Origin: Escherichia phage vB_EcoS_PNS1
Sequence record: NC_073063.1
Reading direction: 5' to 3' (one strand)
DNA: 43,945 nt
Both the position numbers and the translations under genes were made by a program. Positions 5,302-39,172 of this stretch are shown here, one piece after another. How positions within the stretch are numbered: the first letter of the stretch is position 1; the number at the start of each line of letters is the position of its first letter. The notes under the pieces are model-generated. The model ran no database searches. It was not told the origin of the DNA and worked only from the letters and a program-made list of their open reading frames with translations.

Positions 5302-5909
5302 CCACGTTTAAATTATACGGCGTTTTAGGACGTCGATTCGGTAAAGTGCATAAGCTGGATTGCTTCACTCCTGGCGAGGGTATCACCGGCCTGTGCGTGA
5401 AGTTACCCGGCTTACAGGACTTTCTAATGTCGGCCCACCTGGACAATATGATGTTCAAGGTGCGCAAAGGCGACCACACGATGACCGGCTATGATGAGTT
5501 GGGCGAGTTCCACGGCAACCGCGTAGTTACCATCGCGCCGGTTATGACGGGCGCAAAAAGAGGTCTGGGCCAATTGCTGGCGGGTGTGGTAATAGTGGTG
5601 GCGTCGTTCTATACCGGCGGACTTGCTACCGCCGCTTTCGGGGCTTCGGCTGCAACCGCTGCCGCTATTGGGACAGCGACGTTTTCGTTCGGCATGTCGC
5701 TTGCGCTGGGCGGTGCTATGCAATTGCTGTCCCCACAGCCGAAAGGATTGCAGACACGGCAGGACGTGGATAACAAAGCGTCGTATGCGTTCGGCGGACC
5801 GGTAAACACGACCGCACAAGGTACGGCACTTGGTGTATTATGGGGCGAGCGTGAGATCGGCGGCGCTATTATTTCAGCCGGAATCGTAACCGAGGACTTA
5901 AACGAATGA
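5292..5909 (+). CDS. tail assembly protein, lambda gpI-like
   Basis: Synteny directly upstream of J-like gene; Gly/Ala-rich hydrophobic C-terminal half. Confidence 0.7.
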   Translation: MAMTTFKLYGVLGRRFGKVHKLDCFTPGEGITGLCVKLPGLQDFLMSAHLDNMMFKVRKGDHTMTGYDELGEFHGNRVVTIAPVMTGAKRGLGQLLAGVVIVVASFYTGGLATAAFGASAATAAAIGTATFSFGMSLALGGAMQLLSPQPKGLQTRQDVDNKASYAFGGPVNTTAQGTALGVLWGEREIGGAIISAGIVTEDLNE

Positions 5910-8900: not shown

Positions 8901-9721
8901 CATACAGCCTTAAGGCGGGCGTGACGTATAACGGGACTTACTACGATGCCGGTATGCAGCTTTCAGTTGTTGCGGAAGGTGGCGCGGTTAAATCCCGCAT
9001 CGCGTTCAAGGCGGACCAGTTCTACATTATGCACCCGTCGAATGGGTCGCTTTCGTCCGCGTTTATCGTCGACGGCGGGCAGGTGTATATCGACACGGCA
9101 CGAATCAAGGACGCCTCCATCAACTTTGCACAGATCACGGACACGCTACAATCCAACAACTGGATTCCAGGGAGCAGGGGTTGGCGTATCGCGAAAGACG
9201 GAGGAGCGGAGTTTAACGCAGTAACGGTACGCGGCAACGTGTATGCGAATGATGGCGTGTTTAATGGTACGGTTTATGCAAGGGATGGTGTATTTACCGG
9301 AACGGTCGAAGCTACCAGCTTTGTCGGGGATATCGCCAATATGTATGTTATTGGCGAGAAAGCGATACCCAACACAGATAGGAATGGGTCGAGATCGTGG
9401 TCGGTGACTTTCAACGACTCGTCCAGGTCATCTAAACTCAAAGACTTTGTGTTGCTGTTAAGTTACTCACTGGTCGGGTATACCGCAAACCGGTCAAGTC
9501 GCATAGTGGTTACTGCCAATATTGGCGGGCATGTAGTCTCGAGGTCCATTGAGCGAGCGGCAAGCGGAAACTCAATCCATACGACGATTCCATTAGCTGT
9601 GAAGGGCGTGGCACAGGGAAGTGTACGAATTACAGTTACGGAAAAGTATACAAACGTCTACAGCAGTACATTGCACCCGTCTGTAATATTGATGACCAGA
9701 GGTACTGGTAGCTGGTCGTAA
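5906..9721 (+). CDS. central tail fiber / host specificity protein, lambda gpJ-like
   Basis: 1271 aa; N-terminal and central regions recall lambda J; conserved position after I-like gene. Confidence 0.9.
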   Translation: MTIVYDVTGHKGGGGKQHTPQETPDSLHSLAKIRILLALGEGEFEGITSASELRQRVYLDGTPIQNADLSENFPGARVEFRPGTQHQDVIHGFSAVESEQSVGVKLENGTPWVRQINDTSLDAVRVRIGIPALYTSEDNGDLVGGRIDYKIVVYTDNADPREFTFAAVGKTMSLYERDHRIELPPNVNTGWRVEVHRITADSTSAKVVNNIRVQSITEIIDARLRYPLTALLFVEFDAKAFQNIPRVSIKCKGRKVLIPNNYDPINHTYSGDWDGTFKRAWTDNPAWHWYDICITERFGLGRRIKPQMLNRYALYQIAQRCDQLVSDGNGGREIRFKNDMYIQSQTDAWTVLKDLAAIFAGMTWWGNQMLNIVSDQPVAAVSHTITNASVIDGRFDYASGSQKTRYSTFAVAYGNPKNHYDDAIATGQRVELVRRHKINRLDITAIGCTRESEAQRRGHWALISNQLDQQVSFKVGMEGLFFIPGSVVAIADTNISGGFETRGGRLLSDPGTRTVLNTDSEITFRPGDKFLVRTDSGNVETREIASVNGNKVTLKTALDADPIPDQPFCVDGDDIQLQKFRITDLEYDDSTSTFSVRGIEYNDSKYDAVDNGARLDPGIFTQVPDGVMKGPESVTITPSQISSQGQLITNVDIVFPPVKDAVVYEIQWRRTSLQNMEIQWGNDWVNIPRTASNGAHIPNVFSGNYQARVRAIGMGEISSPWVSSAVTPVEGRLGGLNAPIITNAISGLHQILWKWNHNNAATDISYTELEVRKTGETEWKFLTNVPYPGAEYAQTSLEFGIYQQLRARVADKIGNLSDWSAPFEGQVSDKVDEYMKGLDDEFLTSEDGKRFQEAIETMPQGIYEAMLTDAQQLFNARAEYKGIYAEISVAYNVASDAHKAVAQLETLIGTRLDDAEAAIHTLQTAQSTHEQAFAQYQQTVAAKFGEQEAAIQQVQTATADVAGALAEYKTQVAAQFGQQSAAIEQKMTSTFNHAGGNATYSLKAGVTYNGTYYDAGMQLSVVAEGGAVKSRIAFKADQFYIMHPSNGSLSSAFIVDGGQVYIDTARIKDASINFAQITDTLQSNNWIPGSRGWRIAKDGGAEFNAVTVRGNVYANDGVFNGTVYARDGVFTGTVEATSFVGDIANMYVIGEKAIPNTDRNGSRSWSVTFNDSSRSSKLKDFVLLLSYSLVGYTANRSSRIVVTANIGGHVVSRSIERAASGNSIHTTIPLAVKGVAQGSVRITVTEKYTNVYSSTLHPSVILMTRGTGSWS

Positions 9722-9755: not shown

Positions 9756-9998
9756 TTAATAATCAATGACGCAGTTTGAAGGCGAACCAATCCTTCGGTG
9801 TTCGTGGCTAATCTCCTGGCACCACTGACCCGTATAAGGTAGCTTTTCGGTATCGTAAACCAAAGACCCGTCTTCATGTCGCTCAATAGGCTGAGGTATT
9901 ACACCCGAATTTGGAACGCCTGTGTTTACGCCATTGCCACATGCTGTCATCAGAAGGCACGCCGCGGGTATTATCAGATTTTTGATTAAAGTTTTCAT
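9756..9998 (-). CDS. small lipoprotein, candidate Cor/Llp-like superinfection exclusion protein
   Basis: Internal ATG at 9998 with GGAG RBS gives 80 aa starting MKTLIKNLIIPAACLLMTAC (signal peptide plus lipobox-like Cys); sits between J and tail fiber genes. Confidence 0.55.
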   Translation of the reverse strand: MKTLIKNLIIPAACLLMTACGNGVNTGVPNSGVIPQPIERHEDGSLVYDTEKLPYTGQWCQEISHEHRRIGSPSNCVIDY

Positions 9999-10078: not shown

Positions 10079-11581
10079 ATGGCAGCGGGTACGCTCTCTG
10101 TAACGAATAACAGCAAGGCGGTTGTCGGGGTAGGCACGGCGTTTACCTCGTTTACAGCTGGCGACTTCTTAACGCTGGTGGTGGGGCAAGTGCCCTACAC
10201 TGTTGCGATCGCGTCCGTCGAAAGCGACACCGCGCTTACGCTTGTGCTGCCGTTCGACGGCCCAACGGCAACGGGACTCGCCTGGGACGGCATCAAACGT
10301 GACACCATGTCACTTGCAACGATGGGCGTGACCGTCCAGGCGCAGAAAGCGCTACGCTTGATGATGGCGGATGAAAACAACTGGCGTGCAATCTTCGGCG
10401 ACGCTGAAGAAATCACCGTTACGCTGCCCAGCGGGCAAGTTATGCAGGGTATGTCATGGGGCTACCTGTCATCCTTGCTGAAGGACGTTGACCCCGTTGA
10501 GATGCGCAACCTGCAACAACAAGCCACCGCATCTGAAGCCGCAGCGCAGGGATTTCGCGATCAGGCCGAGGAGTGGGCGAAAAGCGTAAATGCGGATAAT
10601 CTGCTAACAAAATCCGGCAACCTGGCGGGCCTGGCTGACCAATCGGCGGCACGCGTCAATCTCGGTCTTGACCGCCTCGAGCAGTCTACATATGACACTA
10701 GACTTTTTGACGCTTCAGGCGGCTATTACTTCTTTATTGCAGATTCTGATTGGGGGTGTGTCCATAATACTGCCCCGGATTATCCACGCATTGCGTTACC
10801 AGTAGCCAGTGGTGGAACTGGGGGAACAACAGAGTATTCAGCGTGTCAAAATCTACGTGCGCTCAACTGTGCCTATGATATCAACACAAATTACGGTTCT
10901 GAACAATTGTATACAGGTATCGGATTTTACGGCCGAGATGTGTCACCGCAGCCTGGGGGTGACGGCGGGCCTTTCGGCTGGGCCGAGATTATGACAATTG
11001 CGGAGGGGGGTGGTGGCCCTGGATCGGTGGGTAACTGGTCACAGATCGGTTTTTCCACTGCCGCCTCACAGGCCCCGCGCTACCGTCAACGCATAGCCAA
11101 CCCGGGGCAGGTTACTAACTGGCGGGATTTCTTAATTCGTGACCTAAACACCACTGTTGACAGCAACGGTTTTATTAAAATCGCATCCCCTATTGTGAAA
11201 ATCAAAGGTGACGGGACCGCAGAGTTTAACGACGAGTCCGAAGGTTGCTCTGTAACACGGGTGTCCAAAGGTGTTTATGTAATATCGGGTTGTCTGGGCC
11301 TCAATTCCGACGCGTCATGGGGCGGGGTCAATGGCGGCTTTGAGATACCGGTAGATGTAAACAAGCAACCTTTGTTGTGGCTGGATTATGAAGTATTGGA
11401 TGAGGGAAGTATTGAGATTCGCACCTACCACCGCACGCATACTAACGCGCCTAAGTTCGCGAGAAATATTATTGACGGTATCGAAGACGGCGATCCGATA
11501 GATATCCCACCAAGCACCTACATCTCTGTTAGGGTGCAAATGCCCACAACAGGATTGGAAACAGCCACGAGTAGTGCGTAG
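10079..11581 (+). CDS. tail fiber protein
   Basis: 500 aa Gly/Ser/Thr-rich protein downstream of J module; RBS agagga. Confidence 0.7.
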   Translation: MAAGTLSVTNNSKAVVGVGTAFTSFTAGDFLTLVVGQVPYTVAIASVESDTALTLVLPFDGPTATGLAWDGIKRDTMSLATMGVTVQAQKALRLMMADENNWRAIFGDAEEITVTLPSGQVMQGMSWGYLSSLLKDVDPVEMRNLQQQATASEAAAQGFRDQAEEWAKSVNADNLLTKSGNLAGLADQSAARVNLGLDRLEQSTYDTRLFDASGGYYFFIADSDWGCVHNTAPDYPRIALPVASGGTGGTTEYSACQNLRALNCAYDINTNYGSEQLYTGIGFYGRDVSPQPGGDGGPFGWAEIMTIAEGGGGPGSVGNWSQIGFSTAASQAPRYRQRIANPGQVTNWRDFLIRDLNTTVDSNGFIKIASPIVKIKGDGTAEFNDESEGCSVTRVSKGVYVISGCLGLNSDASWGGVNGGFEIPVDVNKQPLLWLDYEVLDEGSIEIRTYHRTHTNAPKFARNIIDGIEDGDPIDIPPSTYISVRVQMPTTGLETATSSA

Positions 11582-18338: not shown

Positions 18339-20630
18339 CTACTTGCGGTAACGATACATACAATCGCCTTCTGCGGCAAGCGGGAAGCCTTTCGCCCAAA
18401 TCGGCAGGTCACACATCAGCGCGCACAACTCCTCGGTTGTGTAGTCGTCAGTATCCGGCACTTCGGTGATCAATTCATCGTGCACTGACAGTACGATCTC
18501 ATAGCCCGCAGCCTCAACGCCGGGCATGGACCACGCGAGGATATCGCGACACAGCGCCTGTACGATGTTTTCCGTCAGTTTGCCGCCGTAGGTATACTGG
18601 AATCCCCACTGGCGCGTCGTCTGATTCTCGCCCTGGTATTTGATGCGGGTGCTGGTGCGCTTCTTGCCGGTATCTTCGTCGATCTCGGTTGTCACTGACA
18701 GCGCAATGCCTGGGTAACTCATAATACGCCCCGACGGCAACTCAATTTTCAACCACCACCCAGCGGCGTTCGGGTCGTCGCGCTCCTCGTCGAAGGTTGG
18801 GTCGTGCTTCGCCTTCGTTCGAACAATCTTGAGCGCTTTCCTGCCATCCGGGCGAACGTTCGCGCCAGCCCAGTACGCTTTACCAGGATTTCGGATTGCA
18901 CATAACACCGCATCCTCAAGCTCGGCCCAAAATGCTACGGTCTTCGGGTGGGCCTCACGCCACATGCGTTTGATCGCGTCGCATGTCAGCCATACGTTTT
19001 TAGGCAGTATGTAGGTTGGGCGCTCGTCTTTCTTGCCAGGCTTCGGCGGGCGCTTCGCTTCGTTAATGCGAGCGTACTCATAACCACGCTTCGCCGCCGC
19101 CCAAATGTGATCCGGGAATGTGCCCTTCATGACGTCCGCCATCGCGTACAGGTCCAGTCCCAGGTTTTTAGCGAATTGCAAGAACGCCGCGACGCCGCCA
19201 CCATAGCCCAGTCCCAATTCGCAAGCCTTACCGATCTGGCGTAAATCCTTACGGTTAGCTTTGATGTAGTCCGGGTCGAGGCCGAACATCTTACCGGCAG
19301 TCTCACAATAAATATCGCGACCGGCCTTAAACACCATTAGCGCGGTTTTCTCGCCAGCGATCCAGGCAAGCCCGCGCCCTTCAACGTTGGAGTAGTCCGC
19401 TACGACAAACTTCTTGCCCTTTGCGGGGATAATGCACCCGCGAACGGTCGAGGCGGTTAGCTTCGATATGTCATACGCCCAGTGCGCGGTCCCGCGTAAC
19501 AGGGAGTTGATGCCGTTGGTGAGCATGTGCGACCGGACCCAAAAAGCGACGTCGCTCTCGCCTTCGCGGCGCTTAATCTTCCCTTCGTGGTCGTCGCTAT
19601 ACTCGCCGCGTGCCAGGTTTTGCGGCTGAAAGCTTTTACCGGCCCAGCGCAGCGTGCGCTTTGCGCCGCCATACTGAAGACATCCACGGCGGCGACCATC
19701 TGCGGATAAGCCGTTAACTAGCGGATTGTATTTAGTCGATGCCGTTGATGACGCGCCGAGGCGCATTTCTATAAGCGCTTTGCCTTCGTCGGGGAAGTCC
19801 GGGTCTTCAAGCAGGTCGTTAAGTGTGGATTTCTGCGCGTTGTGGATTGTGAACGCCGGGGCGATATCACGCAGGATTGGCAGGAATTCATTGCCGGTAA
19901 GCTTACCGCCGAAGCGCTCCCAGGCTTCTTCCTTCAATTCTTCTTTATGCGCCTGTACCGCTTTGATCGCGGCGTTCGCCAGATCAACGTCCACGTAGAA
20001 GCCGCGGTCGTTGACCAACTGGTCAATAAGCAGGATTTCATCTTCCTTCGGCGTGTTGCCCCAGTCCGGTATGCGCCAATAGACTTCCCTCATAGCGATG
20101 ATATCCAACGCGGCATAGCGCAGGAATTTAGCCCACTCCTCTGGGTGCGTCTCGCGCGTGTAGCGGCGGATTTTGTAGGTCTTAGGGGTAGGCTTACAGA
20201 ATCGTTTGATCAGCGCCTTGCCCGCCTTATCCTTCGCGTGCTCTGCGTCAACGCCCAGCACCTGGCACTGCATATCGAGGCTACCGGGCAGCGCGTGGCG
20301 AAAAGCCATAATCATGGTGTCTTCGATCTGGCTTACCGGCAGGTCAATACCCCACTTCTCACGGATAACCAGGCGGTCAAACAGGAGGCCGTTAGCCATC
20401 ACTATTTTTGCTTTCTTGCGGGATACCCGGCGGAGCGCCTTGCGCAGTTCACGCGGCATTGTGGGGAATTCAGTGCAATCCCATGTCTGCACGCGGCCCT
20501 CGTCGATGGCGTAGGTGCAAATCATAATCTCGGTGGTTGGGTGCTCTGCGTAGGCGTACGCCCCAACTTTCTTCAGGTCCACCCCGCTAAATGTCTCGGT
20601 ATCGAGAAACAGGCGTTCGAAGTCTTTCAT
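18339..20630 (-). CDS. family A DNA polymerase with 3-prime to 5-prime exonuclease domain
   Basis: 763 aa; exo motif LFLDTETFSG, O-helix/motif B region ...GKACELGLGYGGG, motif C SVHDEL. Confidence 0.95.
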   Translation of the reverse strand: MKDFERLFLDTETFSGVDLKKVGAYAYAEHPTTEIMICTYAIDEGRVQTWDCTEFPTMPRELRKALRRVSRKKAKIVMANGLLFDRLVIREKWGIDLPVSQIEDTMIMAFRHALPGSLDMQCQVLGVDAEHAKDKAGKALIKRFCKPTPKTYKIRRYTRETHPEEWAKFLRYAALDIIAMREVYWRIPDWGNTPKEDEILLIDQLVNDRGFYVDVDLANAAIKAVQAHKEELKEEAWERFGGKLTGNEFLPILRDIAPAFTIHNAQKSTLNDLLEDPDFPDEGKALIEMRLGASSTASTKYNPLVNGLSADGRRRGCLQYGGAKRTLRWAGKSFQPQNLARGEYSDDHEGKIKRREGESDVAFWVRSHMLTNGINSLLRGTAHWAYDISKLTASTVRGCIIPAKGKKFVVADYSNVEGRGLAWIAGEKTALMVFKAGRDIYCETAGKMFGLDPDYIKANRKDLRQIGKACELGLGYGGGVAAFLQFAKNLGLDLYAMADVMKGTFPDHIWAAAKRGYEYARINEAKRPPKPGKKDERPTYILPKNVWLTCDAIKRMWREAHPKTVAFWAELEDAVLCAIRNPGKAYWAGANVRPDGRKALKIVRTKAKHDPTFDEERDDPNAAGWWLKIELPSGRIMSYPGIALSVTTEIDEDTGKKRTSTRIKYQGENQTTRQWGFQYTYGGKLTENIVQALCRDILAWSMPGVEAAGYEIVLSVHDELITEVPDTDDYTTEELCALMCDLPIWAKGFPLAAEGDCMYRYRK

Positions 20631-21965: not shown

Positions 21966-23388
21966 TACTTAAGTCCTCGTCGGTAGCTTCGGACCACGCG
22001 GGGCGTGGGTCGTCTATAGGGGCTAATACCGGTTTAGCCGGTGCGCGCGTGATTTTATCACACAATTTCGCCCACACTTTCGGCTTCTCTTCCTTCAATA
22101 CCTTCTCGGCATCAGTAGGGCTGAGTAATGTTTCTTTGTACATAACATCGCGCTTGATCCGGGCCTTCGTGAAGATTTCAATCACTTCGCTTTCGTCCGC
22201 CCACTTGCGGATCCCTTCCTTACCGGCGACCATCTTGAGGCCCAGCGATTCGCCGTCGCCCGCCATTACCGCCTTGAATACCGCGTACTCGATAGCCTTG
22301 ATGTGCTGGCGCATTGCGTCCAGACCCTCATATGCCTTGCGCAGTTCCGCCGCGCTCATAGCGCCTGGTGCCGCTTCTTTCTTACCACGCTTCGCACGTC
22401 GTGCCGCTTTCCTGGCTTCGCGGGCCGTATTGCGGTCGTGATTGGCGCATTCTTCCTCTGTCGCGATACTCACGTCGTCTCCCAGGTCTTCGTCTGTTGC
22501 CGTTGGTGGGGTCATCGTGTCGATTGCGGCCTTAGCGCGGGCGCTACACTGATCCGCAAATCTGCACCACTGACACGCATCAACGCTCGGTCGGAAGTCG
22601 GCACGGGTGAGTCCCTTCTTGCCGCGGGCGTACGCTTCCAGGGCGGCGATAGCACGCTTGGACGCAAACTTCGCGAATATCTCCAGCGCTTCCACTGTAA
22701 TATCCCACTCCGATGCCCCGCCGCAATACGGCTGGAAGATGACCAGTCGCACGGTCGTAATGTCGTACATGGTTTGCAGCTTGCGCAGCAGGCCGAGCGC
22801 GTACAACATAAGCTGTTTGTTTTTTTTCGCCTCTACCTTATGTCGCCCGGTCTTCAGGTCGCCAACAATCAGCATGTACGTGCCGTCGGTCTTCTTCATG
22901 ACCATGACCATATCGGCAGTGCCGAACGTCTTAACCCGGTTGCCGTCGATCTCGAAGCCAGAGTGTAGGACGCGGGTAAGATCGGCGCGCATCTCAAGCT
23001 GGACAAACTCCGCCACTTCGAGAAGCGGTCGCCAGTGGTCAATGTACGCGTCGCACTGTTTCACCATATCGTCGTTGACCAGTACGCCGCCTTTCGGTGC
23101 TTTCGGGTGCGCCTTTACTGGCCCCTTGCCTTCATTCTCGACGTAACATCCTTTACACGTCTTTGCTGTTATCAGCTTTTCACCGGCGATAATGCGGTTT
23201 AGCACCACTTCAGATACGGTGTGCATACTCGTACCGTTAATCGCGGCTTGCCCGGATTCGTTCGGGATATCTTTTTCTACCACCAGGGCGGCGGGACACC
23301 CCATCCATTTTTTAGCACCTGATGGGCCAAGTAATGAGTGTTCCGTATTACTACCGGATTGCGTTTTACGTTTTGGTTTAATCGCCAT
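21958..23388 (-). CDS. PD-(D/E)XK nuclease, DUF2800/Cas4-like, with C-terminal cysteine cluster
   Basis: 476 aa; N-terminal SGSNTEHSLLGPSGAKKWMGCPA and CQWCRFADQC cluster; typical neighbour of DUF2815 and PolA in phage replication modules. Confidence 0.75.
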   Translation of the reverse strand: MAIKPKRKTQSGSNTEHSLLGPSGAKKWMGCPAALVVEKDIPNESGQAAINGTSMHTVSEVVLNRIIAGEKLITAKTCKGCYVENEGKGPVKAHPKAPKGGVLVNDDMVKQCDAYIDHWRPLLEVAEFVQLEMRADLTRVLHSGFEIDGNRVKTFGTADMVMVMKKTDGTYMLIVGDLKTGRHKVEAKKNKQLMLYALGLLRKLQTMYDITTVRLVIFQPYCGGASEWDITVEALEIFAKFASKRAIAALEAYARGKKGLTRADFRPSVDACQWCRFADQCSARAKAAIDTMTPPTATDEDLGDDVSIATEEECANHDRNTAREARKAARRAKRGKKEAAPGAMSAAELRKAYEGLDAMRQHIKAIEYAVFKAVMAGDGESLGLKMVAGKEGIRKWADESEVIEIFTKARIKRDVMYKETLLSPTDAEKVLKEEKPKVWAKLCDKITRAPAKPVLAPIDDPRPAWSEATDEDLSNE

Positions 23389-23545
23389 TATTCCACCCTT
23401 GAAAATTGAGCAATGTAATAATCGTGTTCAACATTGTCCCGCTTCGCGTCTTCGTTCATTGTCAAAGCCAGTTCTCATGCCTGATTATTTCTGGTAGCTC
23501 GTCGCCAGTGATACGGCAGCGAAATAAAACGAAAAATATAGCCAT

Positions 23546-29138: not shown

Positions 29139-29438
29139 ATGGGGCAGATTATGATTCATGATGTGATTTATTGGTTTGGTATGGCTAGCATGTTATGCCT
29201 GGTTACGGGAGTGCTGGGCGCAATATGGGTATTCCTGGTATGGCCCGCGGTAGAAGCCGCCAGCATTACCCGCATGACGTTCCAGATATACAAGCGCCGT
29301 GGAATCACGGAGCACCCGACCAGGTTGCGCATGTGGTGGCTGTGGTATCGGGATATGATAGGCGGTCGAACATTCGAAGCCGTCCGTTCATCCGGGTGGG
29401 AGTGGAAAGGCGTCGGCAAGTGGTCCGTTTTCGATTAA
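29139..29438 (+). CDS. membrane protein
   Basis: 99 aa with hydrophobic N-terminal segment and Trp-rich region. Confidence 0.45.
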   Translation: MGQIMIHDVIYWFGMASMLCLVTGVLGAIWVFLVWPAVEAASITRMTFQIYKRRGITEHPTRLRMWWLWYRDMIGGRTFEAVRSSGWEWKGVGKWSVFD

Positions 29439-29455: not shown

Positions 29456-29490
29456 AGTCCCAGTGAGCTAAAACTTACTGGGACTTTTTT
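29456..29490 (+). terminator. hairpin plus T6 immediately upstream of holin-like gene (attenuator)
   Basis: Stem agtcccagt/actgggact then tttttt, ending one base before ATG 29491. Confidence 0.5.
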
Positions 29491-29781
29491 ATGGATAAGC
29501 TAAACGAGTGGCTATTCGCCCTGGCATGTCTGGCGGGTGGCTTCGTAGGCGCACGCATTCATGGCGATGCTACGAAAGGGCCGCTAAACTTCGTTTTGTA
29601 TGTTGTAGTTGGCTTCCTGTGTGCCATATTTGGCGCACCGGCTATCGCTGAGTGGGCTGGTTTGTCGGGTGAGCGCACTGTCGCCGGTTTGGGCTTCGTA
29701 ACCGCGATCTTCTGGATGCCAATCGCCGACCGGATCAGGGAGACTATTGCGTCGTTCCGACTTCCGGGGGGTGCAAAATGA
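29491..29781 (+). CDS. holin-like membrane protein
   Basis: 96 aa with predicted transmembrane segments; directly upstream of endolysin. Confidence 0.5.
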   Translation: MDKLNEWLFALACLAGGFVGARIHGDATKGPLNFVLYVVVGFLCAIFGAPAIAEWAGLSGERTVAGLGFVTAIFWMPIADRIRETIASFRLPGGAK

Positions 29782-30023
29782 TTATCTCCGTCCTGTTGTT
29801 TGTTATCATCGGGGCTTCGTCCCTGTTTAACGTGTATGCGCCGTCCGTCCAGGATGGCATTTTCGGTCGGGTGCTGTATCTGTTAACGGCAATGGTCTGT
29901 ATTATCGGATTGTTGCAAACAGGAGACGTATCTGATACCACCTGGACCGCGTTAATATGGCTGTTTGCATTGCGCACACTGCGTAATGCTGTTTTGAATG
30001 GGGTAAAACATGCGATTCAGTGA
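29778..30023 (+). CDS. membrane protein (holin/antiholin candidate)
   Basis: 81 aa, two hydrophobic helices; overlaps neighbours on both sides. Confidence 0.45.
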   Translation: MIISVLLFVIIGASSLFNVYAPSVQDGIFGRVLYLLTAMVCIIGLLQTGDVSDTTWTALIWLFALRTLRNAVLNGVKHAIQ

Positions 30024-30501
30024 TAACGGTCTCCGATTTACGGCAGCATGGGAGGCGTTCAGCCCGGTGCCGTATTTCGCGACCAAGAAAGAGCAGGCCC
30101 GCGGCCTGTACACCTGGGGTTATGGGCACACCGGCACTAATCCGCCTCGAAGCATTACCCGTGCGGAAGCGCTGGAACTGCTCAAGCGCGATGTGGCGTA
30201 TGCCGAGGACTGGGTGAACAAATACGCACATCCGAGCATTAACCAGGCGCAATTCGACGCGCTGGTGGACCTGGTAATCAACGCCGGTCCTGGTCCGATC
30301 GTACCGGATGACGTCGCTAACGATTTCGATGATGCGGTGCGACTGGGCGACTGGGCGAAGGTCCGTGCTACGCTGCCGCAGTTCCGCAAGCAAGGCGGGG
30401 AAGTGCTTAAAGGTTTGGTCCGCCGAGCAATCGGCAGACAGGCGTTGTTTGATGGTAAGCAGTGGGACGTTGCCGAGCGAATCGGGCGTAACGCCGCATA
30501 A
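30010..30501 (+). CDS. endolysin, phage lysozyme (GH24-like)
   Basis: 163 aa; E...D...T catalytic spacing with TWGYGHTG motif. Confidence 0.85.
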   Translation: MRFSDNGLRFTAAWEAFSPVPYFATKKEQARGLYTWGYGHTGTNPPRSITRAEALELLKRDVAYAEDWVNKYAHPSINQAQFDALVDLVINAGPGPIVPDDVANDFDDAVRLGDWAKVRATLPQFRKQGGEVLKGLVRRAIGRQALFDGKQWDVAERIGRNAA

Positions 30502-30516
30502 TACGAGGGGCACGAT

Positions 30517-30684
30517 ATGTTGAAAAGTATTCTTGATCATAATGCGGAAGCGCTTGCCGCACTGGCTAAAACCGAAGATCCTGGCGCACGCGCTATCATC
30601 GCGGACACTATCAGCCACGCGGGGGTCTTCGATGCGAAGCTGCCAAGCCCACCACCGCAGGAAGAATCTGGTCCTGCAGCGTAA
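30517..30684 (+). CDS. small hypothetical protein (55 aa)
   Basis: ATG 30517 with GAGGGG RBS, followed by terminator; preferred over the overlapping track ORF 30533..30724. Confidence 0.35.
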   Translation: MLKSILDHNAEALAALAKTEDPGARAIIADTISHAGVFDAKLPSPPPQEESGPAA

Positions 30685-30690
30685 ACAATC

Positions 30691-30717
30691 AAGCCCGGTT
30701 AATTCCGGGCTTTTTAT
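30691..30717 (+). terminator. rho-independent terminator after lysis genes
   Basis: Stem aagcccgg/ccgggctt with loop ttaatt followed by tttttatt. Confidence 0.6.
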
Positions 30718-34142: not shown

Positions 34143-35663
34143 ATGACCGTTAACGTTGACAACCAGCACCCGCTCTATGCGCGCATCGCGCCAGAGTGGA
34201 AAATGATCCGTGATTGTGTAGCAGGGGAGCGCGCCGTGAAGGCGTGCGGCCCCTTGTACCTGCCACACCCCGCAAGCGGCGACACCACCGACCCGAAATC
34301 ACGGGCACGGTATAAGGCGTATAAGCAACGTGCTGTCTTCCTGAACGCCACCGCCCGCACACTGAATGCGCTGTTAGGTGTAGCCTTCGCCAAACCGGTG
34401 AGTATGGACCTTTCCGGGGCAATGGCTGACCTGATTGATGACGTAGACGGCAGCGGGATGCCACTGGCGCAACTCCTGCGCGGCGCTATGTCGGAAGTGC
34501 TGCAATCGGGCCGCGCTGGCTTTATGGTGGACTACGACCGCCAGGCTAACTTTGATGAACTGGGTAACGTAGTGCCGCAGACAGCCGCTGAAATGGCGAC
34601 ACACCGCCCGCTTATCCGCCTGTATACGGCTGAGCAGATCATTAACTGGCGGCAGACCCACGGGGTCGACACGCTAATCGTGCTGAAGGAGACGGACGAA
34701 ATCAGCACCGAAGATCCGGACGACTTCGCAAACCACGAGGTAACGATCTGGACTGAGCTTCGCATGATTAACGGTGTGGCGCATGGTCGCCGCTGGTATT
34801 ACAACGCGGACACGTCCGAAGTGCAAATGGACTTGCCGCGCGGCTTCACCCGCACCGACCTTGTACCACTGGTGGATGCTGCCGGTAACGCGCTTACGCA
34901 ACTGCCTTTCTGTTGGTGTGGCGCGGTGGACAACAACGCGACGCCGGACGCCGCACCGCTGGCAGATATTGCATCCATCAACATTAAGCACTACAACGCC
35001 GAAGCTGACGTCGCAGAGATTGCGCACATCGTAGGTCAACCTACCCTAGTTGCGACGGGGCTAACCCAATCATGGGCTGATAAAAACCTGAAGGGCGGCA
35101 TCGCGCTCGGGGCGACTAAAGGCGTCATCTTGGGTCAGAACATGGACGCTAAACTGCTTCAGGCGGAGGAGAGAAACCTGTCAGTTGCTCTGTGTGAGCG
35201 ACGCGAATTGCAAATGGCTAAACTGGGCGCGGCCCTGGTCGAGAAGGGGACCGCACCTAAGACGGCAACTGAAGCGGCCTACGATGCGCAGACTGATAAC
35301 AGTATCCTGTCACTGATTGCCGGTAACGTTGAGAAGGCTTTCAACCGCGCGCTGCAAATCGTCAAGCTGTTCACTGGCGACACCGCAGATCAACGCGTAA
35401 CGCTGAATAAGTTCTACACCGAGATCACGGTTGATGCACAGCTTATGACCGCGATGATGGCGGGTGTGCAGACCGGTACGGTCCGTCTGGCGGACTTTAT
35501 CAAGTGGATGATGGCCCAGGGCGTTATTGATGACTCGCAAACCGTTGAGCAGGTGGAAGACGAATTGCGAAATCAGAATCCATTGCCTCAAATGTCACCG
35601 GATGCGGTAGAATCTACCGAAGAAGACCCGGACAAGGTAGCGGACAATGGCGAAGACAATTAA
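34143..35663 (+). CDS. portal protein
   Basis: 506 aa, follows terminase; acidic C-terminus. Confidence 0.8.
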   Translation: MTVNVDNQHPLYARIAPEWKMIRDCVAGERAVKACGPLYLPHPASGDTTDPKSRARYKAYKQRAVFLNATARTLNALLGVAFAKPVSMDLSGAMADLIDDVDGSGMPLAQLLRGAMSEVLQSGRAGFMVDYDRQANFDELGNVVPQTAAEMATHRPLIRLYTAEQIINWRQTHGVDTLIVLKETDEISTEDPDDFANHEVTIWTELRMINGVAHGRRWYYNADTSEVQMDLPRGFTRTDLVPLVDAAGNALTQLPFCWCGAVDNNATPDAAPLADIASINIKHYNAEADVAEIAHIVGQPTLVATGLTQSWADKNLKGGIALGATKGVILGQNMDAKLLQAEERNLSVALCERRELQMAKLGAALVEKGTAPKTATEAAYDAQTDNSILSLIAGNVEKAFNRALQIVKLFTGDTADQRVTLNKFYTEITVDAQLMTAMMAGVQTGTVRLADFIKWMMAQGVIDDSQTVEQVEDELRNQNPLPQMSPDAVESTEEDPDKVADNGEDN

Positions 35664-36750
35664 TCAATATATGGCGGATCGAATGATTCGCCGACACATC
35701 TTCACCCAGCGCCTGAGTAATGACCAGGCGCGGCGGGTGCTGGCTATGTGGGAGAAGTTCCGGCCCACGTTACTGGGTAAGCTGACCGAGTTACTTGATG
35801 GCAAAAAGTCCATGAACAACAAGGCACTTACCACTCTGTTAACGCAACTCGACAAGACCGTTAAAACAGAACTGCGCACCGAGTTTAAGGCGCTGGCTGA
35901 AAGCCTTCAGGAGTTTGCCGACACCGAGGCCGATTATCTCGCCGACACATTAACGGCAGCGATCCAGCCGGTGGTCGCCGTACCTGCGGTCGAGGTGGTG
36001 GGGGTAGTAACAGGCGCGCAGATCGCAGCGACGGCTATGAAAAACCCGTTCCAGGGTAACACCATGATGCAGTGGCCCGATTCACTTTCCGAGTGGACCA
36101 GGACGCAGATCGGCAATCAGGTGCGCGCCGGATTCATCCAGGGCAAGCCGACGATGGAAATTATCGCGGATGTGAGGCGCGCGCTAGGCGGTCGTAGTGC
36201 GCAAGCAATCTCAAGCGTTGTTAAGTCCGCGGTCAACCACTATGCGGCGACCGCCCGCGAATTAATGGTAAAAGCTAATGACGATATTCTCGAAGGTCGC
36301 CAATGGTTGGCTACATTGGACACACACACGTCACCCATGTGCCAGCTACGCGATCGCCTGTTTTATCCGGTTGATGTTACTTCCGACACCAAAGGCAAGC
36401 GCGGCGGGAAAGTGGTGGCGGGATCACAATACGGCGCTGGTCCGGGCAAGCTGCATTATTGCTGCCGTTCGACGGAGACGTGGAAAGTCAAAGGTATGGA
36501 AGATTGGCCCAGTGGTAAGCGTCCGGCACTGAAGGATGACGCAGGCAGATTGCTGAGTGAGCAGGTAGACGCGCAGACTGATTTCTTCTCATGGGTGCAG
36601 CGCCAGCCGCGCCATATCCTGGAGGAGTTATATGGAGTGCAACGCGCCGACCAGATTATGCGCGGCGTGAAAGTGCCGAAGATGTTTACCGATTCTGGCG
36701 AACTGATGACTATTGCGCAGCTTAAAAACCGGGGGTTATGGCGTGATTAA
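35647..36750 (+). CDS. head morphogenesis / minor head protein (SPP1 gp7, Mu F-like)
   Basis: 367 aa directly after portal, start overlapping portal end. Confidence 0.75.
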   Translation: MAKTINQYMADRMIRRHIFTQRLSNDQARRVLAMWEKFRPTLLGKLTELLDGKKSMNNKALTTLLTQLDKTVKTELRTEFKALAESLQEFADTEADYLADTLTAAIQPVVAVPAVEVVGVVTGAQIAATAMKNPFQGNTMMQWPDSLSEWTRTQIGNQVRAGFIQGKPTMEIIADVRRALGGRSAQAISSVVKSAVNHYAATARELMVKANDDILEGRQWLATLDTHTSPMCQLRDRLFYPVDVTSDTKGKRGGKVVAGSQYGAGPGKLHYCCRSTETWKVKGMEDWPSGKRPALKDDAGRLLSEQVDAQTDFFSWVQRQPRHILEELYGVQRADQIMRGVKVPKMFTDSGELMTIAQLKNRGLWRD

Positions 36751-37072
36751 ATATGCAGCAATCGGACTGGTTATCGGTCTGGTGGTAGGATTCTGGCTAG
36801 GTGACTCCTATCGTGCTGGCGTAGTGGCGGAGGCGGCGCAAGAAGCGCAAGCCGAAGCCCAACGGCAGCAAACTAAAGTTATTGAGCGCTCCGTGCAGGC
36901 CGAACAAGCCCGCGACGTAGAATACCGGACTATAACGAAAGAGGTTGTTAAATATGTTACGCGCCCTAACCGCCCTGATTGTAGTTTTGATGCTGAGCGC
37001 GTGCGGATCAAGCAACGTGCCGTTGATGCCGCTAACGGAGTCGGCACTGCGTCCGCCGTGCAAGTTCGATAG
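36743..37072 (+). CDS. i-spanin (Rz-like)
   Basis: N-terminal transmembrane helix (AAIGLVIGLVVGFWLG) then charged helical region (AQEAQAEAQRQQ...); start GTG 36743 or TTG 36713. Confidence 0.65.
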   Translation: MIKYAAIGLVIGLVVGFWLGDSYRAGVVAEAAQEAQAEAQRQQTKVIERSVQAEQARDVEYRTITKEVVKYVTRPNRPDCSFDAERVRIKQRAVDAANGVGTASAVQVR

Positions 37073-37184
37073 CCCGTCCGCAGACCCCGACGAGGATTTG
37101 ATGATTGACGTGAAAAATATGGAATGCGGGGCGAAGCTAAGGGCGCAGGTGCTGGAGTTGCAGCAAATAATTAAGGGGCCGTAA
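36954..37184 (+). CDS. o-spanin (Rz1-like lipoprotein), overlapped with i-spanin gene
   Basis: MLRALTALIVVLMLSAC signal peptide with lipobox LSAC, Pro-rich mature part; starts inside the i-spanin gene in another frame. Confidence 0.7.
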   Translation: MLRALTALIVVLMLSACGSSNVPLMPLTESALRPPCKFDSPSADPDEDLMIDVKNMECGAKLRAQVLELQQIIKGP

Positions 37185-37196
37185 TGGCCCCTTTTC
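37173..37196. terminator. bidirectional hairpin terminator between spanin genes and convergent minus-strand gene
   Basis: Stem aaggggcc/ggcccctt with loop gtaat, T-run downstream. Confidence 0.6.
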
Positions 37197-37197
37197 G

Positions 37198-37962
37198 TTA
37201 GCGCGGAATGCCGCAAATCTCGTTAAGTGTTTTCACGTCCAGCGCCACTGCCGTGGATTTTGGCTTGTCCGGGTACGGGATGAATTGCTCGACTTCAGGC
37301 CATGCCTTAATAAGCTTCTTGTCAGTATTGTGCATGTCCAGTACACCGGTAACGGTGAGTTTGAACGCATCATACTTCGCGCGCAACTCGCGACGTGCCT
37401 TGTCGTTGCGGTCCAGTCGCTTACAGAAGTCATGGTCCGCCGGGTAGTCTACGCGACCGCGTGGGAGATATATCGGCAGCGCTTTCCCTTCCTCGTCCAC
37501 TTCGCACACTGACGCGAGCATAACTGTCTCGAACCCCGGAACGATATCGCCGAGATCAGGCGCGAGCTTATTCATATATTTCTCTTCCCAGTATCCGCGA
37601 TGCACGCGGAATTGGCGACCGTCACCGCTCAAGGACAAGGTGCGAACATTGCCGCCTGCGTTGATTTCAAAGGTGGCGTCGTAAACGCTGCCGATACCCT
37701 TCGGGCGGTCGGTGTTATAACTATACGTCGCCTTGTTGGTGTATACGCTGACGCCGTACATCTGCGACTGGTCATCGCGGATTGCCTTGATATGCTCGCG
37801 GAGCGCTGCGAACGTGCGAATGCCTTCCGGCATACAGTCAAGCGTGATTGCGTACGCCAGATCGCGTGAGTCCATCATGATTTGTTTGGCTTCGGTTGCG
37901 ATTTCGTGGTCGCGCAGGATGTTAGCCAGAATCTGATTTTTAATGTCTTTCGTCAGTCTCAT
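37198..37962 (-). CDS. hypothetical protein (opposite-strand island in head module)
   Basis: 254 aa, no motif recognised; flanked by hairpins. Confidence 0.55.
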   Translation of the reverse strand: MRLTKDIKNQILANILRDHEIATEAKQIMMDSRDLAYAITLDCMPEGIRTFAALREHIKAIRDDQSQMYGVSVYTNKATYSYNTDRPKGIGSVYDATFEINAGGNVRTLSLSGDGRQFRVHRGYWEEKYMNKLAPDLGDIVPGFETVMLASVCEVDEEGKALPIYLPRGRVDYPADHDFCKRLDRNDKARRELRAKYDAFKLTVTGVLDMHNTDKKLIKAWPEVEQFIPYPDKPKSTAVALDVKTLNEICGIPR

Positions 37963-38001: not shown

Positions 38002-38316
38002 TTAGTTGAATTTGATGTTGCCACCGGTGGAAGTTAAGCGGGCACATACTGCTTCAACGGCATCGACGCACATGAAATCGTTAAAGGCTTCGACCAGGGC
38101 GTTTATGAAAGATGCCGGAACCAGGCCGCAAGCCGGATTATCGAATGTTGCGGAGTTGATCGCCGCTTTTGCCGCTTCGGAAGCATTCATGCTCTGGCAC
38201 AGATTCAGCGCTTCCGCGTTACGCATTGCGTGAAAGGTAAAGGTATTCGCTACGGTAGCTTTATTGAAACGGGCCATTGCGGCGTCTACTGGAGTTGCTA
38301 CGGTCATGTTAGTCAT
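38002..38316 (-). CDS. hypothetical protein (opposite-strand island)
   Basis: 104 aa from ATG 38316 with AAGGA RBS; upstream region carries the TATATTGGTTGCACACCAACAG element. Confidence 0.45.
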   Translation of the reverse strand: MTNMTVATPVDAAMARFNKATVANTFTFHAMRNAEALNLCQSMNASEAAKAAINSATFDNPACGLVPASFINALVEAFNDFMCVDAVEAVCARLTSTGGNIKFN

Positions 38317-38388
38317 TTTGTTTTCCTTCATATCTCTGTTGGTGTGCAACCAATATAAAGCAACCAACATCCGCAACGCAAGCGAATT

Positions 38389-38416: not shown

Positions 38417-38470
38417 TAAGGCGTGAAGTCAAGCGGGTGGCCCGCTTTGCCACAATCCCAGGGGGATAGC

Positions 38471-39172
38471 ATGAAACTTACTAAAGCAGAATATGACGCG
38501 TTGCCGGAAGGTATGAAGGCGCTTTTTGTTGCCGATGGTGACGGGTACAAATCAACGTTCATGACCGCCGAAGAAGTACAGGCGGAGATCAAGGGTCTGA
38601 AAGACAACAACGCGAAGCTGGTTAGCGAGAAGAAAGCAGAAGCCGAACGTCGCGCCGAAGCCGAGCGCCTTGCGAAAGAGAAAGAGGAAGCCGCCGCGCG
38701 CAAAAATGGCGACCTCGAAGCGATCGATAAGTCCTGGAAAGATAAGTTCGCAAAACATGAAGCGGACACGTCGGGGAAAATCGAAGCCTACCGCAAGCAG
38801 ATCCACGACTTAACCATCGGCAGCGCTGCCAAAGATCTGGCGTCGAAGCTGTTCGGTAAGAACGCGGGCATCATGCAACGTCACGTTATGGACCGCCTCA
38901 CTCTGGAGGACGGCGAAGACGGCAGCTTGAAAGTGCGTGTCTTGCAGGATGGCAAACCGTCCGCGCTGACTATGGAAGAGCTGGAAAAAGAGTTCCGTAA
39001 TAACGCCGATTTTGCATCCGTCCTGGCTGGCACGCCAGCAGGCGGCGCTCCTAGCAAACCGACGCAGGTTGTCGAAGATGTGAAGTCTAAAATTACGATG
39101 GGCCATAGCTTCGGTATCACCGATCTCACCAAACAGGCCGAGGATATCATCGCTAAAATGGGCTACGAGTAA
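38471..39172 (+). CDS. scaffolding protein
   Basis: 233 aa from ATG 38471 (GGGGGA RBS); Lys/Glu/Ala-rich coiled-coil; immediately upstream of major capsid gene. Confidence 0.65.
   Translation: MKLTKAEYDALPEGMKALFVADGDGYKSTFMTAEEVQAEIKGLKDNNAKLVSEKKAEAERRAEAERLAKEKEEAAARKNGDLEAIDKSWKDKFAKHEADTSGKIEAYRKQIHDLTIGSAAKDLASKLFGKNAGIMQRHVMDRLTLEDGEDGSLKVRVLQDGKPSALTMEELEKEFRNNADFASVLAGTPAGGAPSKPTQVVEDVKSKITMGHSFGITDLTKQAEDIIAKMGYE

Follow-up and report, generated by a model that had tools for sequence, protein, structure and literature searches.

The region at 36743-37184 of the 43,945-nt stretch of DNA analysed here (the window) very probably encodes the two-component spanin pair of a Dhillonvirus siphophage, a function assigned from homology, topology and genomic context. 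The window is 99.9% identical to Escherichia phage vB_EcoS_Sponge and near-identical to phages HK578, JL1, EK99P-1 and SO-1. The two overlapping open reading frames that an earlier note had described in this region lie exactly where it placed them: an Rz-like frame for the i-spanin, and a second, Rz1-like frame for the o-spanin that begins inside the first. Our literature search turned up no experiments on this spanin family. The two candidate genes, read from the open reading frames and their translations, and the sequences preceding their start codons are as follows:

36743..37072, plus strand: i-spanin (Rz-like) gene, GTG start, TAG stop, 109 aa
36731..36735, plus strand: GGGGG Shine-Dalgarno-like run of the i-spanin gene, 7 nt 5′ of the GTG, within the 3′ end of the head-morphogenesis gene
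36954..37184, plus strand: o-spanin (Rz1-like) gene, ATG start, TAA stop, 76-aa precursor and 60-aa predicted mature lipoprotein
36939..36944, plus strand: AAGAGG Shine-Dalgarno sequence of the o-spanin gene, 9 nt before the ATG, inside the K-E-V codons of the i-spanin motif TITKEVVKY

The first product matches PHROG 2536, ‘Rz-like spanin’, with E=3.7e-36, and more weakly the spanin PHROGs 8821, 1152 and 2975. Kyte-Doolittle hydropathy averages 2.2 over its residues 1-17, in keeping with a transmembrane helix, and the hydropathy of the whole translation revealed no second hydrophobic segment; we infer a type II orientation, with the bulk of the protein in the periplasm. The chain can be divided into a transmembrane helix at about residues 2-19, a periplasmic helix, a linker containing proline and cysteine (P75, C80) and a second helix. 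An AlphaFold model (AF2, single-sequence) places helices at residues 4-72 and 84-97 around a linker at 73-83, at modest confidence (pLDDT 65), making helices in the periplasmic part likely; the first modelled helix takes in the N-terminal hydrophobic segment. The earlier note had proposed an N-terminal transmembrane helix plus a coiled coil; the helix holds up, but no heptad signal was found, as hydrophobic periodicity at 3.5 residues did not rise above shuffled sequences in a crude test (p=0.67 and 0.31), and we therefore call the protein helical rather than coiled-coil. Alignment shows C80 to be invariant across Dhillonvirus, Jerseyvirus, Kagunavirus and one distant relative.

The second product, read in the +1 frame, begins with a signal peptide, MLRALTALIVVLMLSA, followed by CGSS, in which Arg3, a hydrophobic core and the lipobox LSAC lead to Cys17, with Gly rather than Asp at +2. 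As a signal peptidase II substrate by its lipobox, it is predicted to be lipidated, in agreement with the lipoprotein proposed earlier for this frame. It matches two PHROGs labelled ‘Rz-like spanin’, PHROG 5672 (E=4e-26) and PHROG 1267 (E=1.5e-11), the latter over residues 4-74, signal peptide included. The mature chain contains 7 prolines in 60 residues and is not proline-rich throughout, and a reading of its sequence suggests a C-terminal helix. Hydropathy after the signal peptide peaks at 0.26, leaving no C-terminal hydrophobic segment of the kind that a unimolecular spanin (T1 gp11 type) would carry. Both topological signals on which the pair could have failed, the transmembrane segment and the lipobox, are thus present in the translations. 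C17, C36 and C58 do not vary in the alignment, which reaches relatives of 27-46% identity (Dhillonvirus, Jerseyvirus, Kagunavirus and one distant relative), and C80 of the i-spanin together with C36 and C58 of the o-spanin would be periplasmic cysteines available for homotypic disulfide bonds. According to Kongari et al. 2018 (PMC6139136), such bonds between like molecules are found universally in two-component spanins.

The remaining lysis genes lie elsewhere. The earlier note had placed holin and endolysin at 29491-30501, about 6 kb away, and had put the spanins after the head-morphogenesis gene; both statements proved accurate, with two holin genes and an endolysin gene found in that interval, a gap of 6,242 bp between the endolysin and the downstream spanins, and the i-spanin GTG overlapping the stop of the 35647-36750 gene. 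A canonical contiguous holin-endolysin-spanin cassette was accordingly rejected. The relevant features are:

29491..29781, plus strand: first holin gene, 96 aa, PHROG 2359 ‘holin’ (E=8e-32), 47% identical to the class II holin of K1ind2
29778..30023, plus strand: second holin gene, 81 aa, PHROG 2508 ‘holin’ (E=2e-27)
30010..30501, plus strand: endolysin gene, 163 aa, glycoside hydrolase family 24 lysozyme, Pfam PF00959 (E=6e-21), PHROG 7
30517-30684: orf55, 55 aa, just after the endolysin gene, PHROG 11068, a family of unknown function
30691..30712, found on both strands in the terminator scan: terminator-like hairpin closing the holin-holin-endolysin-orf55 unit
35647..36750, plus strand: head-morphogenesis gene (SPP1 gp7 / Mu F-like), PHROG 241 ‘head morphogenesis’ (E=2e-116), directly 5′ of the i-spanin gene
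37173..37193, strand not assigned: GC-rich hairpin AAGGGGCC-GTAAT-GGCCCCTT, straddling the o-spanin stop, its 5′ arm formed by the last coding bases

The endolysin is 49% identical to that of K1ind2, and a reading of its sequence found no hydrophobic signal-anchor at the N-terminus. Between it and the spanins lie orf55 and the genes for a nuclease, the small and large terminase subunits (terS, terL), the portal and head morphogenesis, the last of these encoding a protein 25% identical to the gp7-family protein of K1ind2 (E=7e-25). A canonical spanin next to the endolysin would have spoken against the pair, and orf55 was inspected as the only candidate in that slot; it has no lipobox and, on reading its translation, no hydrophobic stretch of transmembrane length. 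The lipobox scan of the whole window likewise returned no second spanin candidate, and no lipobox frame with a C-terminal transmembrane domain in a free coding position. Two of its hits, at 19527-19709 and 23192-23497, lie inside long opposite-strand genes and were dismissed as spurious. The scan also recovered a genuine minus-strand lipoprotein gene (9756-9998), which is next to the tail-fibre gene and lacks a paired transmembrane protein.

The pair belongs to a known family. By tblastn, 665 phage records match the i-spanin and 647 the o-spanin, many of them labelled i-spanin, o-spanin or Rz-like spanin. The comparison covered a phage collection and IMG/VR loci, enough to settle the identity of the pair. 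Identity of the i-spanin is about 94-98% to HK578, slur05 and YD-2008.s and 37-42% to Jerseyvirus and Kagunavirus proteins, to which the o-spanin is 43-46% identical. HK578, JL1, SSL-2009a, EK99P-1, EP23 and SO-1 have been placed in the ‘Jersey’ families of overlapped i- and o-spanins, alongside Salmonella phages Jersey, SETP3 and SE2 and coliphages K1G and K1ind (Kongari et al. 2018, BMC Bioinformatics 19:326, PMC6139136); in protein family, overlapped architecture and genomic position, the pair described here shows no substantial difference from them. Jerseyvirus and Kagunavirus spanins likewise follow an SPP1-gp7-like head-morphogenesis gene and precede a scaffold gene. In Kagunavirus K1ind2 the lysis genes are split in the same way, and its genes for holin, endolysin and head morphogenesis are homologous to those here; Jerseyvirus Shelanagig has its spanins in the same position. 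Two details differ: in Dhillonvirus the i-spanin gene begins within the end of the head-morphogenesis gene, whereas one or two extra genes intervene in Jerseyvirus and Kagunavirus, and the o-spanin start of the latter two is a GTG lying 16 nt further upstream than the Dhillonvirus start.

More distant homologues, with the TITKEVVKY motif and an overlapped lipoprotein gene, follow the endolysin gene directly, in lysis cassettes of canonical form, in two relatives (L022 and L023); in a third (L024) the pair is downstream of the endolysin with open reading frames in between. The head-module position is the rule in Dhillonvirus, Jerseyvirus and Kagunavirus, in contrast to the distant homologues examined, which follow the endolysin. 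These comparisons bear on a different reading of the two products, in which the lipoprotein would be of the superinfection-exclusion or receptor-blocking type (Cor of phi80 and N15, Llp of T5) and the helical protein an unrelated membrane protein or a head-assembly accessory. T5 Llp and Cor are small phage lipoproteins with exclusion roles, so that a precedent exists, and the pair does sit among the structural genes, a long way from the endolysin. Yet spanin PHROGs match both products, the two genes occur always together and overlapped across the distant lineages compared, their distant homologues stand directly after the endolysin gene in L022 and L023, and the slot typical of exclusion lipoproteins, beside the tail-fibre gene, is already taken by the separate lipoprotein gene at 9756-9998. 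We regard this reading as highly improbable.

The overlap itself provides a further line of evidence for a functional spanin pair. The o-spanin frame is shifted by +1 relative to that of the i-spanin, shares 119 nt with it and, as had been proposed, runs past its end, continuing for 112 nt beyond the i-spanin stop; this is the ‘overlapped’ architecture, and the same layout is present in all Dhillonvirus copies examined. Neither frame is broken by an indel or a stop in any of the 17 distinct Dhillonvirus copies compared. Third-position variability is 0.64 and 0.59 where only one gene is encoded but drops to 0.39, for either frame, where the two overlap, and these comparisons point clearly to purifying selection on both overlapping frames. 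Such conservation also weighs on the possibility that the pair is truly homologous to spanins but dispensable or vestigial, the outer membrane being disrupted instead by a disruptin-like peptide or by orf55. A site outside the lysis cassette could suggest decay, and orf55 (30517-30684, PHROG 11068) does fill the usual spanin slot; against this stand the purifying selection on both frames, which are free of indels and stops in the 17 distinct genomes, a layout conserved in Dhillonvirus, Jerseyvirus and Kagunavirus, and the character of orf55 itself, which has no lipobox and, on reading its translation, neither a transmembrane segment nor cationic amphipathic character. A dispensable or vestigial pair is accordingly a very unlikely reading.

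By length alone, such an open alternative frame is not rare: of the 555 alternative-frame runs within the long genes of the window, 11 (about 2%) reach at least 79 codons. Third-position variability in the o-spanin-only part (22/37), as judged by sequence comparison, shows that the o-spanin frame is under selection, and relatives of 27-46% identity keep the frame at full length, together with its start codon, Shine-Dalgarno sequence and lipobox cysteine. That the o-spanin frame is a chance opening with a coincidental lipobox, as its 2% background frequency and the 52-aa C-terminal piece without signal peptide annotated in the GenBank records of Sponge and YD-2008.s might suggest, is refuted by these comparative data and by the PHROG 1267 match across the signal peptide, and is scarcely credible.

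We compared the TITKEVVKY motif and the arrangement of start codons across 11 lineages. The motif is the most conserved block of the i-spanin, and it also carries the Shine-Dalgarno sequence and start codon of the o-spanin gene; TITKEVVKY may therefore be constrained at the nucleotide level, locking the spanin family into its overlapped architecture. The span given in the earlier note also allowed an in-frame TTG at 36945 as the o-spanin start. The ATG at 36954 is the better choice, because AAGAGG at 36939-36944 sits 9 nt upstream of it.

Among characterised spanins, the overlapped prototype is P2 LysB/LysC, in which the o-spanin likewise starts in the +1 frame inside the i-spanin gene and extends past its end, and in which the topologies match, with an i-spanin anchored by a transmembrane helix and a lipoprotein o-spanin. 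The P2 pair lies beside holin and endolysin in a lysis cassette (Kongari et al. 2018, PMC6139136), whereas the pair here is 6.2 kb off, in the head module, and no P2-like phages were among the tblastn matches listed for either LysB/LysC counterpart. T4 offers a parallel in position: its spanin genes PseT.3/PseT.2 are likewise ‘not located near’ the holin (t) and endolysin (e) genes, and for its o-spanin PseT.2 a C-terminal helix, as suggested for the o-spanin here, has been predicted, along with a requirement for conserved cysteines (Kongari et al. 2018, PMC6139136). T4 differs in its separated gene architecture, in the sequence family of its spanins and in being a myovirus with no clustered lysis genes.

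Lambda Rz/Rz1 represents the same functional class, a periplasm-spanning inner-membrane protein and an outer-membrane lipoprotein with periplasmic cysteines, and would share the proposed mechanism, in which the membranes fuse once the murein has been degraded. The Rz1 gene lies wholly within Rz, in contrast to the overlapped genes here; the i-spanin here is also shorter (109 aa, against 153 aa for Rz), and the pair is not adjacent to holin and endolysin. A Pfam-A hmmscan at E<=0.1 returned nothing for the o-spanin and only a sub-threshold DUF7904 match for the i-spanin, so that neither product can be assigned to the lambda Rz or Rz1 Pfam families, and the likeness to lambda is architectural rather than at the level of sequence.

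Following the lambda paradigm, lipidation of the o-spanin would take place at Cys17 and the Lol pathway would carry the lipoprotein to the outer membrane, since the +2 residue is Gly and not Asp, while the i-spanin would stay in the inner membrane. Contacts between the C-terminal parts of the two proteins in the periplasm would join them in a complex that passes through the peptidoglycan mesh and is probably dimerised covalently by way of the conserved cysteines on the periplasmic side. After release of the endolysin by the two holins and destruction of the murein, the complexes would become mobile, and fusion of the inner and outer membranes would complete lysis.

The spanins would not be co-expressed with the holins and endolysin, whose own transcript would be bounded by 29456-29485 and 30691-30712. 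From its position, the hairpin at 30691-30712 may part the lysis unit from a second unit containing the nuclease, terminase, portal, head-morphogenesis and spanin genes, an assignment made on consensus hairpin scans in a region where terminator-like sites (15 found) are not above the expectation from shuffles (12.0 +/- 3.9). The late unit would then run in the order nuclease, terS, terL, portal, head morphogenesis, i-spanin, o-spanin, hairpin, with the spanins as its last two cistrons. The closing hairpin at 37173-37193 lies between convergent genes, the o-spanin gene on the plus strand and an Nmad5 gene (37198-37962) on the minus strand; the terminator scan reported it on the minus strand, and on the plus strand its stem is followed by TTCGTT, a weaker T tract. 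It is likely the terminator ending the packaging, head and spanin unit. At the other end of the pair, the i-spanin GTG overlaps the head-morphogenesis stop by 8 nt, and this overlap of start and stop suggests translational coupling of the i-spanin to the head-morphogenesis gene.

Separation from holin and endolysin could be tolerable because spanins would be inert until the endolysin acts, so that their timing need not follow that of the holin. The split is very probably an ancestral trait common to Dhillonvirus, Jerseyvirus and Kagunavirus. We think it rather unlikely that this layout, with the spanins as translationally coupled cistrons at the end of the head-morphogenesis operon, has a functional meaning and is not a historical accident; if it had one, the position could, for example, set the dosage or the timing of the spanins with respect to capsid assembly, whatever the expression of holin and endolysin. 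Our literature search found no paper discussing the head-module location of Dhillonvirus or Jerseyvirus spanins, and the Shelanagig announcement is silent on lysis genes.

Unclustered lysis genes are textbook knowledge from T4, and both the spanin pair and its split position are an already catalogued trait of Dhillonvirus and its Salmonella and E. coli relatives. The interpretation put forward in the earlier note is thus supported, yet the finding is an ordinary one, since the family is catalogued and unclustered lysis genes are also known from T4. Its main value is corrective and concerns annotation quality, with little significance beyond. Several GenBank records of relatives annotate the pair as spanins, but that of vB_EcoS_Sponge labels both genes ‘hypothetical’, and the Sponge and YD-2008.s records begin the o-spanin at an internal start, giving a 52-aa product without the lipoprotein signal; the correct o-spanin gene is 36954-37184, encoding 76 aa. 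For the engineering of Dhillonvirus phages for therapy, the full set of lysis genes must include the spanin pair of the head module, and not the holin-endolysin cassette alone.

The two frames reported by the earlier note as an overlapping pair at 36743-37184 are both present in the ORF list and in the raw sequence:

36743-37072, plus strand: i-spanin gene (Rz-like, frame A), GTG start, TAG stop, 109 aa
36954-37184, plus strand: o-spanin gene (Rz1-like, frame B), +1 frame relative to A, ATG start, TAA stop, 76 aa

The genes have 119 nt in common and the o-spanin gene runs 112 nt past the i-spanin stop, which is the 'overlapped' spanin gene architecture. The i-spanin GTG, with a GGGGG run 7 nt upstream, shares 8 nt with the last codons of the preceding gene (35647-36750; ORF list and raw sequence). 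Frame B contains an in-frame TTG at 36945 as well as the ATG at 36954; because AAGAGG lies 9 nt upstream of the ATG, the latter is the likely start, yielding the 76-aa product.

Length by itself makes an alternative frame of this kind only mildly unusual: among the long genes of the window, 11 of 555 runs in alternative frames reach at least 79 codons. The question of chance is decided by comparative data rather than by frame length. Across 17 distinct Dhillonvirus copies, drawn from annotated records and IMG/VR loci, both frames were intact in every copy, with zero indels over 442 bp. Wherever a single frame codes, variability peaked at the third codon position, with 44/69 such positions variable where A codes alone, 22/37 where B does and 57/100 for the upstream gene. 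Within the overlap this third-position variability dropped to 15/39 in the A frame and 15/38 in the B frame, the result expected if both frames were constrained.

Residues 1-17 of the i-spanin (MIKYAAIGLVIGLVVGF) have a mean Kyte-Doolittle hydropathy of 2.2, and no further hydrophobic segment was found anywhere in the protein. An AlphaFold2 model built from the single sequence (mean pLDDT 65) places a continuous helix at residues 4-72, a loop at 73-83 that includes P75 and C80, and another helix at 84-97, supporting a helical i-spanin; however, the 3.5-residue hydrophobic periodicity of these segments was no better than in shuffles, so a coiled coil is not demonstrated. The N-terminal transmembrane helix of the original description thus stands, and its coiled coil is unproven. 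The o-spanin begins with MLRALTALIVVLMLSA/CGSS, in which a basic residue precedes a hydrophobic core and the lipobox LSAC, with Gly at +2. Under the '+2 rule', the o-spanin should therefore be sorted to the outer membrane. Its mature form would be 60 aa long and contain 7 Pro, besides two more Cys (positions 36 and 58). The predicted topology accordingly holds on both sides, including the LSAC lipoprotein read in another frame and extending beyond the end of the first gene.

A 701-bp query around the pair shows 99.9% identity to Escherichia phage vB_EcoS_Sponge; it matched 156 phage records at 80% identity or more, placing the window, by sequence, in Dhillonvirus. Against PHROG, the i-spanin matched phrog_2536 'Rz-like spanin' (E=3.7e-36), with weaker matches to 8821, 1152 and 2975, and the o-spanin matched two 'Rz-like spanin' families, phrog_5672 (E=4e-26) and phrog_1267 (E=1.5e-11, over residues 4-74). 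Pfam returned no significant match for either protein, and membership in the lambda Rz/Rz1 sequence families was therefore ruled out. By tblastn, 665 phage records contain the i-spanin and 647 the o-spanin, the majority being Salmonella Jerseyvirus and E. coli Kagunavirus or Dhillonvirus. Many carry the label i-spanin, o-spanin or Rz-like spanin. In the alignments, C80 of the i-spanin is invariant along with a V68, K70, Y71, P75 block, as are the predicted lipidation site C17 and the further cysteines C36 and C58 of the o-spanin; this pattern fits the conserved periplasmic cysteines of two-component spanins described by Kongari et al. (PMC6139136). The same 2018 study groups overlapped i-spanins and o-spanins into a 'Jersey' family, whose members include the Dhillonviruses EK99P-1, EP23, HK578, JL1, SSL-2009a and SO-1 as well as Jersey, SETP3, SE2 and K1G/K1ind. 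Topology signals, PHROG matches and conservation all support reading these genes as a spanin pair.

The remaining lysis genes, and two further ORFs considered alongside them, lie elsewhere:

29491-29781: holin, holin PHROG match
29778-30023: holin, holin PHROG match
30010-30501: endolysin, family-24 lysozyme, Pfam PF00959 (E=6e-21)
30517-30684, plus strand: 55-aa ORF directly 3' of the endolysin, PHROG 11068, function unannotated
9756-9998, minus strand: 80-aa lipoprotein, MKTLIKNLIIPAACLLMTA/CGNG, PHROG 12984 'lipoprotein' (E=8e-41)

Read by eye, the endolysin N-terminus shows no hydrophobic signal-anchor sequence. From the endolysin stop to the spanin start is 6,242 bp, matching the roughly 6 kb first noted, and the interval holds the 55-aa ORF, a DNA-repair exonuclease-like gene, the small and large terminase genes (terS/terL), the portal gene and an SPP1-gp7-like head morphogenesis gene; the last of these lies directly upstream of the spanins, as had been proposed, and its stop overlaps the i-spanin start by 8 nt. 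The 55-aa ORF occupies the slot usual for spanins, is conserved (labelled 'lysozyme downstream ORF' in Sponge) and has a Pro-rich acidic tail. It contains neither a lipobox nor a visible transmembrane segment, and a lipoprotein-signal scan of the whole window returned only the o-spanin, two matches within long genes of the opposite strand that were rejected as spurious, and a single unpaired lipoprotein, leaving no canonical spanin beside the endolysin. On the opposite strand, the gene for the unpaired 80-aa lipoprotein has a 1271-aa tail-fibre-like gene (5906-9721) on one side and the following tail gene (10079-11581) on the other, a typical place for Cor/Llp-type superinfection-exclusion lipoproteins.

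The spanin position recurs in related genera. Jerseyvirus Shelanagig has annotated i-spanin and o-spanin genes in the same place, between the gp7-like head gene and the scaffold and major capsid genes that follow. Kagunavirus K1ind2 likewise carries a 'putative spanin; overlapping gene' in this position, and its holin II, holin I and endolysin genes are ~7.7 kb distant on the circular map. Because K1ind2 shares both the layout and homologous genes (47% protein identity for holin, 49% for endolysin and 25% for head morphogenesis), we infer that the arrangement was inherited rather than rearranged locally. Distant IMG/VR homologues with the same i-spanin motif lie directly after the endolysin (L022, L023) or downstream of it with ORFs in between (L024), supporting the spanin assignment and suggesting that the head-module position is derived. 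T4 spanins situated away from holin and endolysin are already well known (PMC6139136).

By analogy with lambda Rz/Rz1, the model used here (summarised in PMC6139136), the i-spanin would be anchored in the inner membrane and the lipidated o-spanin in the outer membrane, and the two would bind in the periplasm, held inside the murein mesh; after the holins have freed the endolysin and the murein has broken down, these complexes would fuse both membranes. Because spanins would be inert until murein degradation, they would need no co-regulation with the holin, making a split layout unproblematic.

Expression context was assessed from hairpins found by a consensus scan, in which the regional count of terminator-like sites was not above shuffle expectation:

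29139-29438: 99-aa membrane protein, PHROG 2531, function unannotated, just upstream of the first hairpin
29456-29485, plus strand: terminator-like hairpin, 12-bp stem then TTTTTT, 5 nt before the first holin start codon
30691-30712, reported on both strands: terminator-like hairpin 3' of the 55-aa ORF
37173-37193: hairpin straddling the o-spanin stop codon, where the convergent minus-strand gene ends

Judged by this placement, holin-holin-endolysin and packaging/head/spanin appear to be transcribed separately, the latter unit ending with the two spanin cistrons. The overlap of the i-spanin start with the head-morphogenesis stop suggests translational coupling between these genes, and the hairpin at 29456-29485 could be a terminator requiring read-through or antitermination for lysis gene expression.

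Beyond the spanins, two opposite-strand genes are inserted before the scaffold gene:

37198-37962, minus strand: Nmad5 'nucleotide modification associated domain 5' gene, Pfam PF18757 (E=7e-62)
38002-38376, minus strand: function-unannotated protein gene, PHROG 24635
38423-39172: scaffold gene

In Pandora71 the place of the second gene is taken by a much shorter annotated minus-strand ORF, so the insert that separates the scaffold gene from the head-morphogenesis/spanin genes appears variable.

The most conserved i-spanin block, TIT[KR][ED]V[VI]KY (36932-36956), also serves to initiate o-spanin translation: its K-E-V codons contain the Shine-Dalgarno sequence, and 'tAT G', read across Tyr and the next codon, supplies the ATG. 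This arrangement occurs in 9 of 11 lineages, distant ones included (the window plus comparison loci L016, L018, L020 and L022-L026), whereas in Jerseyvirus and Kagunavirus the Tyr codon is TAC and the o-spanin begins at a GTG 16 nt upstream. Protein function, the embedded start signals or both may keep the motif conserved. A Dhillonvirus subgroup (L011, L016 [Sodalis phage SO-1], L017 and L018) has a shortened i-spanin C-terminus, ending in ANRVGL-stop or ANGIGN-stop versus ANGVGTATAVQVR-stop otherwise, and its overlap with the o-spanin is 21 nt smaller.

Collectively, this is a catalogued spanin pair in a layout typical for its lineage; GenBank annotates spanins at this locus in YD-2008.s, HK578, EK99P-1, Pandora71 and StarDew. 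Both genes are labelled 'hypothetical protein' in the Sponge record, and in Sponge and YD-2008.s the o-spanin is called from an internal start (L027 8427-8585; L001 9427-9585), giving a 52-aa C-terminal fragment without the lipoprotein signal peptide. PHROG 5672, a 47-position profile, covers o-spanin residues 32-76 only and could derive from truncated products of this sort. The sole useful output of the analysis is an annotation correction, with the full o-spanin gene at 36954-37184.
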